Source: Candidatus Xenobia bacterium (GTDB lineage: Bacteria > Vulcanimicrobiota > Xenobia > Xenobiales > QWHO01). From it: 64,000 nucleotides of DNA. Both the position numbers and the translations under genes were made by a program. The notes beneath the pieces were generated by a model. The model did not search any database. It saw only the letters and a program-made list of their open reading frames with translations, and was not told where the DNA came from. How positions within the stretch are numbered: the first letter of the stretch is position 1; each line of letters opens with the position of its first letter. The DNA is taken from positions 1 to 64,000 of the forward strand of contig BTUM01000031.1 in the NCBI GenBank assembly GCA_045863235.1, written 5' to 3'. Below are positions 23,146-59,988 of the stretch, in pieces.

Positions 23146-24357
23146 ATGATCCCTCCCCTGCGCAACGACAAGGAAGTCCGCAAGGCTGCCCGCGAGGCGA
23201 TCGGGGGCCGCACCGAGGACATGGAGAAAGCCCTGGAGCAGATCGGCGTCCACGGTCACAACAGTGACGTGCAGGACGTGGCCAACGTGGGCCTGATGGC
23301 CATGCAGGGGGTGGAGACCGGGCACGAGACCACCGAACTGGCCCGCCGCCAGGCCGGTAGGGCGGCGCTGGATGTCCTGAGCAGCGAGCACGACCCCAAG
23401 GGCAGCGTGCAGGGCGTGGGGCGCGTGGGCGAACAGTTGACCGACCCCAGCAACGCCTTTGCTCTCAACCTGAGCGGGGCCGAGACCATCTTGCAGGCGA
23501 TCCAATCGGCCGCCATCCCGGGAGCCATGGGAGCGGCCATCGCCTTCACGCTGAAGCTGGGCGAGAAGCTGCGCGAGCCGGGACGCACCGCTACCCAACA
23601 CAGCTCATTCACCCCCGAGCGCCCCGAGCACATGCTGGGCCCGGGGCAGAACTTCGACTTCGTGGGGGTCTCAGCCGTTTACCACGCCGCCTTCTCCAAC
23701 CTGGTCTCGCTCGATCTTCGGCCCCAGGTCGGCGAGCAGATGACGTCAGTGGAGCTGGCCGACCTGGGCAACTCGATGCTGCTCTACGCCGGCGAGGCCA
23801 ACGCGAAGTACCCCGGCTACCTCGAAACCCCGGACACTCCTCAGGTGGTGGCCAGCGAGGTGCTCGCGCGCCTGCCCGAGACCGCCAAGGCTACCGAGGA
23901 TACCCGTCGCTGGGCCGAGCTGGGCATGAAACTTCTAAGCGACAACCCGCAGGCAGCCGGCTGCGAGATCATCCTGAAGGCTGTCTCGGACAAGAAGCCT
24001 GCCAACTCGGTGACCTTGCTGGCCATCGGACGCCAGGCCCTGGAGGCGCTGCCCGAAGAGCGGCGCGAGAGCTTCGCGCAAAACGTGCTGTACCAGGCCG
24101 TCAGCCAGCGCCAGCGAGAGAGCGAGGAGCCCATCAAGGGCGCCTGGGCGGCGCTGAACGAGATGGCCGGGCGGGTCTCGCGCAACGAGCTCTCGGCCAG
24201 CCAGGCCGTGCTCGGAGGGGTGGAGCAGCTCTCCCAAACGGACCCGTGGCTCATGCACGGGACCACGACGCCCAGCAACGCCGGTATCGCGGCCAATGAG
24301 CACGTGGTCTTCGTGCCGGGTGGGCGCCTCAAGGTGCGCAAGCCCCCGACCAGTTAA
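23146..24357 (+). CDS. Hypothetical helical protein with the shared C-terminal motif
   Basis: 403-aa ORF with coding codon bias; ends GIAANEHVVFVPGGRLKVRKPPTS. Confidence 0.8.
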   Translation: MIPPLRNDKEVRKAAREAIGGRTEDMEKALEQIGVHGHNSDVQDVANVGLMAMQGVETGHETTELARRQAGRAALDVLSSEHDPKGSVQGVGRVGEQLTDPSNAFALNLSGAETILQAIQSAAIPGAMGAAIAFTLKLGEKLREPGRTATQHSSFTPERPEHMLGPGQNFDFVGVSAVYHAAFSNLVSLDLRPQVGEQMTSVELADLGNSMLLYAGEANAKYPGYLETPDTPQVVASEVLARLPETAKATEDTRRWAELGMKLLSDNPQAAGCEIILKAVSDKKPANSVTLLAIGRQALEALPEERRESFAQNVLYQAVSQRQRESEEPIKGAWAALNEMAGRVSRNELSASQAVLGGVEQLSQTDPWLMHGTTTPSNAGIAANEHVVFVPGGRLKVRKPPTS

Positions 24358-24377
24358 GCCAGGACCAGGAGGGAAGG

Positions 24378-24734
24378 TCAGGCCGACTCGGCCAGAAGCT
24401 GGCGCTGGCTCGCGCCCAGCCGCAGCCAGTGCTGGCCCTGGTCCACCGCCGGGATGGAGAGCACCAGGTACATCCCCGGGGCTGGCGGCTGAGCCAGGTC
24501 GCGACCCACCAGCTCGGAGGCGACCTCGAGCGAGGTGACCGCCAGGGTGGTGGAGAGTACGCCCTCCTCGAGCTTGATGTCGCGAAGGTCAAGGCTGTCG
24601 ATCATCTCCAACCCCTCTTCGTCGCACGGATCCACCACCATCACCACCGGGCTCCCCTCGCCGCGGCGGAAGGCCTGCCGGGCCAGTTGCTCGATCTGGT
24701 CCAGGTTCAGGTCAACCAACTCGTTCTCGATCAT
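24378..24734 (-). CDS. Hypothetical protein
   Basis: Preceded by TGCTAAAAT (24772-24780) and GAAGGAG. Confidence 0.7.
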   Translation of the reverse strand: MIENELVDLNLDQIEQLARQAFRRGEGSPVVMVVDPCDEEGLEMIDSLDLRDIKLEEGVLSTTLAVTSLEVASELVGRDLAQPPAPGMYLVLSIPAVDQGQHWLRLGASQRQLLAESA

Positions 24735-57462: not shown

Positions 57463-57546
57463 CTGAGCAGGATATCACTTCAGGGGCCTTTCAGGGAAGA
57501 CGCTTAGACTTCTCGGTATGAAACTTGCCCCGGTCGGCGACGCTCT

Positions 57547-59988
57547 GTGATCTCTGCCCTGAGGGGACTGTTCGCCCGGCCCGACCAGAAGCGGGCCCGG
57601 CAGGCTCTGGCGGGCGAGGGCCCCCTGAGCGACCGCTTTGAGAAGGTGCACAGCCAGGCCGAGAAGCCCGAGGCTCGAGCCATCCTGGAGCTGACCCGGC
57701 AGGCTTCCGAGCAGGCCAGCGGGGTCCATCGCGAGGCCCTGCTGCGCACCGGTCTCGAGAGCCTGGTGCAGAGCGTGGACGCAAGCGGAGGGGCCCTGGC
57801 CGGACTCGGAGCCCGCCTGCTGACCTCGGTTTCCGAGCCCACGGAACGAGTCCGGGTGGCCCGCGCAGTGCTCGATCACCTGGGAGAGAATGCCCCCGAG
57901 GATGAAACACGCGAGTCAGCCCGCTTTCTGCGCGCAGTGACCGCGGGGGCCCACTACCTCAACAGCCAGAGCGCCGGCGCCCGGGCCGGGCTGGAGAGCC
58001 TGGCCGCCGGGGGCTCACTGCCCGTGCAGGCCCTGGCTGCGGCGGCAGAAGGCTTGCAGGGCGAAGGGCGGGACGATGCGGCGGCCATGCGGCGCAAGGC
58101 GGTCGAGCTCTTGTCCGGGCAGGATCCACTGGCCCGCATGGGCCACCTGGCCCTGGACAAGATGCGCTTCTCGGATACCAGCTCCCGCCTGGTGGAGCGC
58201 ACCCTGGAGCTGGAGGGGACCGAGCTCCCCGAGGCGGCTCTGGCCCTGCTCGACTGCGCATACGTGGGAAAGGACTCGCAGGGCAACTGGGCCGACGAAA
58301 GGAGCCCCGTGGCCCGGGTGCTGCTGGCCGAGCTGGGAGGCCCGCTGGCAGATTCCGCCCGAGCCCTGCTGGACGCCTCCAGCTATTCGGCCAGCAATGA
58401 GGCCATTGCCAGGGCGCTGATCCCCGCTGCCCCGGGAGTCACGGAAAGCCAGCAGGCGGGCATGTTCCTGACAGCCCTGCAGGGAGCCCTGGCCGCCAAG
58501 AATACCGAGGGCACCTACAAGGACGACAGGACCCCGGTAGCCCGCCAGGCGGCCCAGCACTTCCAGGCCAGCGCCGATCCGGCCGTGGCTCGACTGGCTC
58601 GCATGGCTTCGGCAGCCCTCGAGGGGCGCAAGTTCACTTCCAGCAACGTGGCCATCGGAGAGGTCTTCCTGAGGGCGCTCCAGGGCGGCTCGAAGGACCC
58701 CTACCCGGTGGCGGCTGCGATGATCGAGGGGTGCACCAGCGCCGATAACAGCGAAGGAACCTGGCAGCCCGACCGGGCCACGGTGGCCCGACAGCTGGTG
58801 ACCGCCCTCAAGAGCCAGGAGACCGATCCCGGCAGGCTGCGTCTGCTGGGCATGGCCGAGGCGGCCATGGGAGAATCGCTCGGTTTCGCCACCACCACCG
58901 AGCAGGTCGCTCTGCAGGCCTTCCGGGGCATCGGTTCGACCCGCGACTCCGACCTGGGTCGGTTGGCCCGCGTCATGGTGGAGAATTCCCAGGCCGGGCG
59001 GACCACCGAGCAGGCCTACAAGGACGACAAGACCGTGGTCGGACTTCGTTGCGCCGCCTACCTGGCAGCTCATGGCGAGCAACCCTCCACGCGCGACTGG
59101 GCCAGCTTCCTGCAGCTCTCGCTCGACCGCATGACCTTCACCACGACCGGTGAAGGCGTGGCCAGCGTGGTCTTCGCGGCCATCGCCGCCGGCAAGCCGT
59201 CCGACCCCGCTTCGCTGGCCAGGGCGGCCCGCCAGATGGTGCAGGAAAGCTATGCCGGCAAGACTTCCGACGGTCGCTACGAGGATGACAAGGCGAAGGT
59301 GGCCCGCAACGCCGTCGATCACCTGGTCACACTCCAACCCGAGCCGGCCAGCCTGATGCTGCAGGCCTGCCTGCAAGATGCGCACTACTCCACGTCCATC
59401 GCCTCCCTGGCCGATACTGGCCTGGCAGCCCTGGCCTCGGGCAAGAGATCGCCGGCCGAGCTGGCCTCGCTGGGCAAGCAACTGATCGCCTGCGGCGAGG
59501 TCACCAGTGCCAAGCAAGACCGGGGGCCGCTGGCGATGGCCGTGTTCCGAGCCCTGGCCGAGCACGAGCAAGATGACTCCCTGTGGGCTGCTCATGGCAT
59601 GATGAATACCTCAGTCGACTTCCGGGTGCGCCAGGCGGTGGCCGGGATGATCCTGGACGCCTGGGCATCGGGACGGCTCGAGACGTTTCTGGAGAGAGAG
59701 CTGGCCCAGGCAGCCCCCCACCCGGGCAACCATTCCATGATGCTCCAGGGGGCCTTGCGAGCCGTGGCCGCCACCCGGGGCGAGGCGGCGGTGCAGGCGG
59801 CCGAGCAGGCCATCGCCCGGGCCGGCGACAGCCCTCAGGCGCTGTTCGAGGCTCTCAAGAATCTGCCCGACGTCCGCCGCGAGGTGAAGAATCTGCTCGC
59901 CGCCGTTGCGGAGAAGAAGGGCGGAGCCGTCGAGGAGCGCGCTCAGTATGTGCTGGTGGGCGGGGTACGCATCCGCAAGGCCGCTTAA
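57547..59988 (+). CDS. Ala-rich helical repeat protein with the shared C-terminal motif
   Basis: Five repeats of about 76-87 aa; ends GGAVEERAQYVLVGGVRIRKAA. Confidence 0.85.
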   Translation: MISALRGLFARPDQKRARQALAGEGPLSDRFEKVHSQAEKPEARAILELTRQASEQASGVHREALLRTGLESLVQSVDASGGALAGLGARLLTSVSEPTERVRVARAVLDHLGENAPEDETRESARFLRAVTAGAHYLNSQSAGARAGLESLAAGGSLPVQALAAAAEGLQGEGRDDAAAMRRKAVELLSGQDPLARMGHLALDKMRFSDTSSRLVERTLELEGTELPEAALALLDCAYVGKDSQGNWADERSPVARVLLAELGGPLADSARALLDASSYSASNEAIARALIPAAPGVTESQQAGMFLTALQGALAAKNTEGTYKDDRTPVARQAAQHFQASADPAVARLARMASAALEGRKFTSSNVAIGEVFLRALQGGSKDPYPVAAAMIEGCTSADNSEGTWQPDRATVARQLVTALKSQETDPGRLRLLGMAEAAMGESLGFATTTEQVALQAFRGIGSTRDSDLGRLARVMVENSQAGRTTEQAYKDDKTVVGLRCAAYLAAHGEQPSTRDWASFLQLSLDRMTFTTTGEGVASVVFAAIAAGKPSDPASLARAARQMVQESYAGKTSDGRYEDDKAKVARNAVDHLVTLQPEPASLMLQACLQDAHYSTSIASLADTGLAALASGKRSPAELASLGKQLIACGEVTSAKQDRGPLAMAVFRALAEHEQDDSLWAAHGMMNTSVDFRVRQAVAGMILDAWASGRLETFLERELAQAAPHPGNHSMMLQGALRAVAATRGEAAVQAAEQAIARAGDSPQALFEALKNLPDVRREVKNLLAAVAEKKGGAVEERAQYVLVGGVRIRKAA

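Follow-up and report, generated by a model that had tools for sequence, protein, structure and literature searches.

An apparently undescribed C-terminal tag family in a Candidatus Xenobia bacterium and its likely place in flagellar-type protein export

Three genes and a genome-wide tail family

The stretch of DNA analysed here, called the window, comprises 64,000 nucleotides of a Candidatus Xenobia bacterium (phylum Vulcanimicrobiota) at the beginning of contig C31 (BTUM01000031.1, assembly GCA_045863235.1) of a genome of 8.36 Mb, 166 contigs and 97.6% completeness, referred to as G000. Three of its genes, encoding the proteins P0001, P0002 and P0003, end in a similar short peptide, the tail, which an earlier note had proposed as a sorting or secretion signal; the three peptides translate exactly as given there and close at the stop codons of open reading frames (ORFs) of 403, 355 and 813 aa (Table 1). 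The three proteins are unrelated to one another, as that note held, and none has a Pfam or NCBIfam family above cut-off. A single-sequence model of P0002 is mostly helical and of low confidence (mean predicted local distance difference test score, pLDDT, 49.9). A 150-aa version of P0003 (P0013/L200, G046:C184:39754-40203) occurs on three contigs and consists of just its first 94 and last 57 residues, an in-frame deletion that keeps head and tail (G-, f- and g-codes denote sampled genomes, families and genera, L-codes extracted loci and C-codes contigs).

A 20-column profile, started from C-terminal 30-mers picked out by a regular expression, iterated and free to match anywhere, placed the tail on 192 ORFs of G000 at the score of ≥18 used as threshold for a tail call, which is about 3% of its proteins (192 of ~6,700 crude gene calls) and agrees with the many copies expected from three in 64 kb. 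The best match lies ≤33 residues from the stop codon, counted from motif column 16, in 185 of the 192 (median 7), so that the predicted restriction to the C-terminus was confirmed. When training and held-out contigs were split by contig parity, the held-out halves gave 88 and 89 terminal matches (total 177) in ~0.67 million terminal positions; in ~3.5 million internal positions they gave 3 and 4 (total 7). No match was obtained with shuffled tails, with reversed ORFs or in 19,297 non-coding segments of low third-position GC content. Six further copies lie in segments removed by the coding filter, and several degenerate copies score below the threshold. The consensus [GA][VI]xExx[GD]x[VL]x[VI]GGVx[VL][RK][KR]R follows on a linker of Gly, Pro, Ser and Ala and on a segment rich in Leu, Ala and Glu, which looks like an amphipathic helix. 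The final residue and the length remaining after the motif vary freely.

In the other seven ORFs the best match is internal, 177-325 residues before the stop, and one of these also carries a terminal copy. Four paralogues with an internal motif (L018:343-2589, L019:304-2919, L037:16872-19067 and G000:C135:61-2361) continue with ~200 aa of beta repeats of the YNP/GVAG type, and in G000:C98:439-4347 a repeat of another kind follows. A tail-like stretch is also visible by eye near residues 30-50 of a clostripain-like regulon protein (L284:2959-6282, plus strand, G000:C11); with the tail profile it reaches no score ≥6.

The tail was predicted as a three-strand beta-meander (AlphaFold2 on an 81-row alignment; strands 12-14, 18-21 and 24-27; pLDDT 87 over residues 11-30), so that the beta structure of the hairpin proposed earlier is retained with one strand more. 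From the alternating pattern, the conserved Val/Ile and Glu residues would lie on one face of the sheet. The 20 tail columns contain no transmembrane (TM) helix. Database comparisons agree with the view that the tail matches no named domain: none of 81 tails matched NCBIfam, Pfam gave nothing better than E≥0.02 and sequences of the PDB only E≥0.58, a fold search of 48,161 chains with the 30-residue tail model returned only AztD at Z 2.0, and scores in the Atlas comparison were ≤0.80, none of them significant. Global searches, weak for a motif of 30 residues, gave eight matches, six of them true tails and two repeat artefacts, and a search with tail model A4 also gave eight. In a full-text literature search no paper was found on the tail motif or on the export machine discussed below, and the strings VGGVR and IGGVR did not occur in the ten of 919 papers that were listed. 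The tail thus represents a real and large C-terminal tag family that is apparently undescribed.

The proteins that carry it, here called passengers, are of 150-1860 aa and fall into 91 BLAST clusters, 68 of which are singletons; the term unrelated, valid for the three window proteins, therefore applies to the whole set only in part. In the Pfam scan, which covered the 96 of 192 passengers in the 39 densest 20-kb loci, 22 were matched (15 PQQ_2, 1 PD40, 3 InhA-like MAM, 1 HD and 2 weak) and 74 were not; beta-propellers make up 16 of the 96. CUB/F5-F8-like domains also occur, and reading by eye adds small proteins that pair a hydrophobic hairpin with a coiled coil, as well as repeats of helical or short beta type. 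A homologue outside the set exists in G000 for 28 of the 192, often by way of the MAM domain or with a degenerate tail. By Pfam, the subclass appears mostly non-catalytic (propellers, MAM-like beta-sandwiches, helical repeats, hydrophobic hairpins), which would suit a role in binding to a neighbouring cell or inserting into its membrane. Outside this set, about 13 MAM paralogues of 670-780 aa were noted (including the subtilase of the window and L269:417-2744), two of them subtilases confirmed by Pfam, and the subtilase and MAM proteins have a type-III-like head in place of a Sec signal. A protein of 610 aa (L283:11314-13143, minus strand, G000:C9) combines annexin repeats with N-terminal matches to NolX/HrpK-HrpF and is a translocator-like candidate.

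Table 1. Tail genes, regulon promoters and other features of the window
Feature	Position	Strand	Remarks
P0001, tail-bearing protein, 403 aa	23146..24357	+	One paralogue (C22) with internal motif; no regulon promoter found upstream
Tail of P0001	24274..24357	+	Score 20.1, weakest of 192; weak, atypical copy
P0002, tail-bearing protein, 355 aa	56395..57462	-	Singleton; no regulon promoter found
Tail of P0002	56395..56466	-	Score 28.7
Regulon promoter TTCAG-N6-TTCAG-N10-TAGACT	57477..57510	+	Position weight matrix score 23.6; upstream of P0003
10-codon ORF	57518..57550	+	Starts 7 nt after the -10 element; TGA overlaps GTG of P0003
P0003, tail-bearing protein, 813 aa	57547..59988	+	Homologues: basic tail in G108, acidic tail in G060
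Tail of P0003	59920..59988	+	Score 40.5, near-consensus
PQQ-type beta-propeller, tail-less regulon member	60865..61869	-	Homologous to tail-bearing propellers; promoter 61901-61934, score 23.1
Tail-less regulon member, 287 aa	54751..55614	-	N-terminal style as in tail proteins; promoter 55621-55654, score 23.1
Regulon promoter and tail-less 227-aa gene	15271..16005	+	Promoter score 33.4
Subtilase with InhA-like MAM domain, tail-less	25902..28058	-	Type-III-like head by eye; MAM common to large tail proteins
Regulon promoter positions	15271, 17347, 55654, 57477, 61913, 61934		
Tubulin_2 family protein, 1079 aa	47050-50289	+	Zinc-ribbon and coiled-coil genes downstream
Tail-less protein, 155 aa	40275-40742	-	Homologue of N-terminal half of two tail proteins (C2:61275, C111:1439)

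Shared promoter and N-terminal head, and a probable export machine

The most enriched word upstream of the tail genes is TTTCAG (91/192 vs 328/3485), which belongs to a promoter of the form TTCAG-N6-TTCAG-N10-TAnnnT present, under cross-validation, in 124/192 tail genes vs 169/3997 other genes. At score ≥18 the promoter has 362 sites in G000 and 9 in reversed DNA; its N6 spacing accounts for 112 cases, compared with 8-21 for each of N4, N5, N7 and N8. The start codon lies 6-7 nt past the -10 element in 90 of 128 genes, and this short distance suggests leaderless mRNA for many genes of the regulon; the RNA runs gave a flat cover of the contigs, indistinguishable from DNA. Among the three window tail genes only P0003 has the promoter, and the overlap of its start with the 10-codon ORF may reflect coupling or an old frameshift. 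Direct repeats of 11 bp across the -35 region are typical of activators of the OmpR/PhoB type; 14 regulators of OmpR type are counted, and no OmpR-type gene of G000 carries the cargo promoter upstream. The promoter is conserved in f1, f3, f4 and f13, being present in 16/16 f3 genomes, and the regulon that it defines is newly recognised here. Some small regulon genes of 64-71 aa (G000:C133:497-2560, C27:16883 and C51:45213), whose ends are conserved and whose promoters are strong or doubled, are possible peptide precursors.

Genes that start close behind the promoter number 126 with the tail and 129 without it, and the products of both groups have in common an M-x-[IV] start and a Ser/Pro/Gln-rich N-terminus, the head. 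The M-x-[IV] start was found in 78/126 tail proteins vs 178/1197 of the background, a classifier trained on the heads of tail proteins reached an area under the curve of 0.905 and accepted 86/129 tail-less regulon proteins vs 149/1134 background proteins, and a D-x-[VF]-x-[LIPR]-[SGT] motif within residues 11-60 occurs in 54/362 regulon proteins vs 28/1134. Sec or Tat signals, which according to the earlier note none of the three proteins has, are lacking in 126/126 tail proteins with a promoter-defined start, against a background in which 229/1197 have one; this call was made by a simple hydrophobicity rule rather than SignalP, and the head classifier was measured against background proteins, not against a trained type III secretion predictor. 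Lack of signal peptides would also fit proteins that stay inside the cell, with the tail as a degron or localisation tag of a developmental regulon, and terminal tags read by AAA+ adaptors are common. We give this explanation only a very slight chance, since MAM-like domains are common to passengers and subtilases, and CUB/F5-F8-like and propeller domains also occur among the passengers. The shared head, and the cargo promoter on an 81-aa gene beside the export cluster, point outward.

This cluster, complete and of flagellar type, extends from flgB to flhA on contig C27 and contains flgBC, fliEF, two copies of fliG, fliHIJ, SLT, fliK, flgE/F-like genes, fliM, two copies of fliN, fliOPQR and flhBA. 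Three identical 81-aa genes, one of them with the cargo promoter, follow flhA at its end. Within the cluster, the rod proteins, FliK and the 81-aa proteins lack the tail, as the profile matches include none of them. Upstream of the flgB and flgE/F operons (G000:C27:79451 and C27:69630, minus strand) lies TTAAC-N6-TTAAC, which has the spacing of the cargo box with another sequence and 15 matches in the genome, both strands counted; it resembles the CtrA box and may belong to a tier that acts earlier in the hierarchy. Five stand-alone genes for the FlhA cytoplasmic domain were also observed (G000:C80, C3, C1, C106 and C107; L002-L004, L009 and L010), two of them fused to FliG-N, and in other genomes the total of FHIPEP matches reaches 19.

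Other systems were sought as well. No flagellin and no encapsulin (family-1 shell gene) was found in G000; VipB of the type VI secretion system was found in 0/5 genomes and not in G000, contractile sheath genes in 3/35 genomes, none of them in f1 or G000, and the VirD4-family coupling protein of type IV secretion systems (T4SS; PF02534) in 0/5 genomes including G000, DotL-type models not being searched separately. The tail is not a C-terminal domain (CTD) of the type IX secretion system (T9SS), which has about 70-80 aa, as there is neither a Sec signal nor a match to a curated model, T9SS genes themselves not being searched for; likewise, the TM helix and Sec signal of PEP-CTERM, LPXTG or GlyGly-CTERM proteins were not encountered, and none of 81 tails matched an NCBIfam model. 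By elimination of these systems, proteins that have such heads and no signal peptide would most plausibly leave through the flagellar-type gate.

G000 also has two full secretins and nine full-length PilB/GspE ATPases, whose systems normally take Sec or Tat cargo. On this basis the tail itself could direct export by a second route or in two steps, as when type III cargo in the periplasm leaves through a GspD/PilQ secretin, which would suit its strictly terminal position and the lack of FlgI, with which the rod may end in the periplasm. We consider this unlikely: secretins are present in 42/42 panel genomes, tail-positive or not, the tail-less regulon proteins and the subtilases, with their identical type of head, would have to leave by that exit too, seven copies are internal by 177-325 residues, and neither the last residue nor the length after the motif is fixed. 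That the tail is an export signal, as the earlier note had it, is further opposed by the near-equal number of tail-less proteins with the same head and promoter (129 vs 126), by the only fitting machine being far more widespread than the tail (below), and by the tail-negative genome G096, in which the regulon is retained and a tail protein has a homologue without the tail. Head and promoter also occur in proteins and lineages that lack the tail, which makes the head the likely export signal; the tail would then be a second handle, specific to certain lineages.

Distribution, charge types and a probable docking handle

Among 151 sampled Vulcanimicrobiota genomes (kin among the samples are not independent), FliP was detected in 142 and flagellin above cut-off in 48. 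A tail model built from G000 alone had matches in 15/151 genomes, and a broader model at least five in 16/151, from six families (f1, f2 in genera g8 and g9, f3 in genus g6, f4, f11 and f19); in f15, f20 and f21 and in the remaining two f3 genera of the sample (g4 and g5) it gave at most a single weak match. Six single weak matches of the broader model (five were inspected, none with a terminal tail) and five matches in G084, whose five loci showed no motif, are not counted as tails. Model A2 was partly built from genomes later scanned with it, and match counts of 54 are lower bounds. In loci of other families, at a GC content of 41-72%, the motif lies ≤29 residues from the stop in 62 of 63 listed rows (59 distinct). 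The homologue of a 219-aa tail ORF is tail-bearing in G060, whereas in G096 it has 150 aa and no tail; one propeller query had no match in four tail-negative f3 genomes.

The G000-only model had no match in G060, where the homologue of P0003 ends in an acidic tail; 10 of 11 matches to this acidic version are terminal (L214 is not), and the variant was seen in one genus. The basic end described earlier is therefore not essential to the tail. In a quick tree of 51 passenger propellers the genomes are intermixed (24 changes vs 24.6 when shuffled), and three propellers of G060/G088 in three separate clades all carry acidic Gly-Asp tails, their G000 sisters being basic. Tail type thus appears, from these comparisons, to follow the genome and not the passenger. 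Such a change in concert within a genome is as expected from one shared partner or from tails that bind each other.

On balance, the tail is likely a docking handle for one partner encoded in the genome, on proteins that are likely exported by their N-terminus through a flagellin-less machine derived from the flagellum; we hold this to be somewhat better than an even chance. A winged-helix-type activator on the TTCAG repeats, spaced by 11 bp, would turn on ~350 genes, many of them leaderless; the M-x-[IV], Ser/Pro/Gln-rich head would commit the products to the FlhAB-FliOPQR gate; and the tail, on its linker behind the amphipathic helix, would be bound to the partner by packing of beta-strands. 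For this partner a C-terminal chaperone or adaptor of flagellar style, which sorts before export, is mildly preferred over a scaffold that acts after it. Of the proposal that the tag is read by an export or docking machine, a protein partner is accordingly the part that seems most likely, and the tail as export signal of a dedicated machine finds no support.

Several points weigh against this reading. Export of the tail proteins is predicted from sequence, and the P-ring protein FlgI was not found in G000, which bears on how the cargo would cross the outer membrane. The multi-copy tail is found in 16/151 genomes and FliP in 142/151; no tail-specific gene was seen in the core cluster, which looked alike in 5 genomes with the tail and 6 without it, contig ends truncating some of the regions. 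The promoter is absent from 64-68 of the 192 tail genes, P0001 and P0002 included, and the TTAAC box of the apparatus, different from the cargo TTCAG, scores just 11.4, a value that 154 sites in reversed DNA also attain. Tail proteins have hydrophobic segments no more often than the background (36/126 vs 366/1197). Promoter-led genes have a tail in 0/21 cases in tail-negative G096 and 3/23 in G060, an unbiased contrast too small for significance alone. The net charge of acidic tails (-3.6, n=10, vs +2.2 in G000, n=192) is biased, as the first ten G060 tails were found by an acidic query; basic ends are also seen on Gly-Asp tails of G108, G098 and G070, and the propeller tree came from a short search and has many long branches. 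Besides the genes of the core cluster, four candidates for a protein that reads the tail do not track it: the stand-alone FlhA cytoplasmic domain, also present in tail-negative genomes; the secretins, found whatever the tail status; the A3 family, in 16/16 f3 genomes and 0 in f4, f11 and f19; and a 94-aa regulon protein, in 10/11 f3 genomes and likewise 0 in f4, f11 and f19.

The A3 family comprises nine paralogues of 100-130 aa without a Pfam match, located beside tail genes or subtilases (L266:1791-2177, L267:2931-3308, L268:2929-3258, L269:2902-3261, L015:3032-3331 and others), and near flhA in G052; its copy number is 6-9 in f1 and 1-3 in every f3 genome, and its members are candidate type III chaperones. 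The neighbours of the G000 tail genes include no recurring family beyond kinases, response regulators and other regulon genes, and no recurring neighbour family was seen at the distant tail loci.

That the gene hunts yielded no reader is also what would be expected if the tail were a foldon-like module of self-association, building oligomers or a mixed surface lattice without a separate reader; the hydrophobic, one-sided sheet behind a helix and the genome-wide drift of the tail type are compatible with it too. Within a genome, however, the tail ends bear charges of the same sign, and passengers of 150-1860 aa with very different folds can hardly be expected to share one oligomer geometry, so that we regard self-association as quite unlikely. 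The switch from basic to acidic between genera in turn argues against a fixed chemical ligand and, with it, against a tail that acts in or on a prey or host cell after delivery by binding a foreign protein, a membrane or a wall polymer. Such a role, for which a known prey or host is lacking, is improbable, even though 23 tail proteins of <330 aa have a hydrophobic stretch, many of them by eye a hairpin followed by a coiled coil as in the Inc proteins of chlamydiae, the genome encodes the annexin/HrpK-like protein, and relatives of the organism have been proposed as predators (PMC9259500).

Related signals and significance

The proposed docking handle can be compared with several known systems. 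As in the Legionella Icm/Dot set, whose effectors reportedly combine a C-terminal signal with shared regulatory elements, hundreds of scattered, unrelated genes have a common upstream element and a C-terminal feature; here, no T4SS coupling protein was found and the motif is a beta motif of fixed spacing, not an E-block. The T9SS CTD, PEP-CTERM, LPXTG and GlyGly-CTERM are also C-terminal modules on diverse passengers behind a low-complexity linker. They go with Sec signals, those of sortase type also with a TM helix, whereas the tail proteins have neither of these and match no NCBIfam or Pfam model. The encapsulin cargo-loading peptide, of the LTVGSL type, resembles the tail in its terminal pattern of hydrophobic-x-hydrophobic-Gly-Ser/Gly-hydrophobic-basic, but no encapsulin was found in G000 and the passengers are far too numerous and too large for such cargo.

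Chlamydial Incs share, to our knowledge, no common tail. They are similar to the small passengers in having a type-III-type head, a hydrophobic hairpin and a coiled coil (PMC3048545). Only a subset of the passengers is Inc-like, and the likeness is one of layout. In flagellar export, the chaperones FlgN, FliS and FliT bind at C-terminal regions of their substrates, and the signals, which are helical, are found in a handful of axial subunits. A C-terminal signal is described for FlgE, FlgC, FlgG and FlgD (PMC10936197), so that these substrates, like the tail proteins, would join a flagellar-type gate with an N-terminal and a second, C-terminal signal. Unlike them, the tag described here is a beta-sheet on ~190 non-flagellar proteins of a genome in which flagellin was not found. 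The predator Lysobacter enzymogenes OH11 likewise re-uses a flagellar export apparatus lacking FliC, its flagellar type III secretion system, for non-flagellar proteins, namely hydrolases; three exported enzymes are named and no shared tag is mentioned in the abstract of that report (PMC7688988), in contrast to the hundreds of genes and the phylum-wide machine found here. The tail is best filed with the terminal docking signals on type III cargo.

In a wider and more tentative proposal, possible but short of probable, the flagellar basal body of Xenobia would have become a general organelle of secretion and attack with a regulon of ~350 genes, and in several lineages a beta-tag with one cognate reader would sort or display ~200 adhesin-like and membrane-inserting proteins, a two-ended code for type III cargo in orthogonal basic and acidic versions of which no paper was found to speak. 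The present analysis provides a testable catalogue of several hundred candidate cargo proteins with their promoter, N-terminal head and new C-terminal tag. The export machine concerned occurs almost throughout this understudied phylum, and no paper describing it as such was found. If a reader exists, it would add to the principle that the address of type III cargo lies at the N-terminus, bear on how flagella become injectisome-like machines, and provide a short, portable pair of tag and reader in two charge versions.

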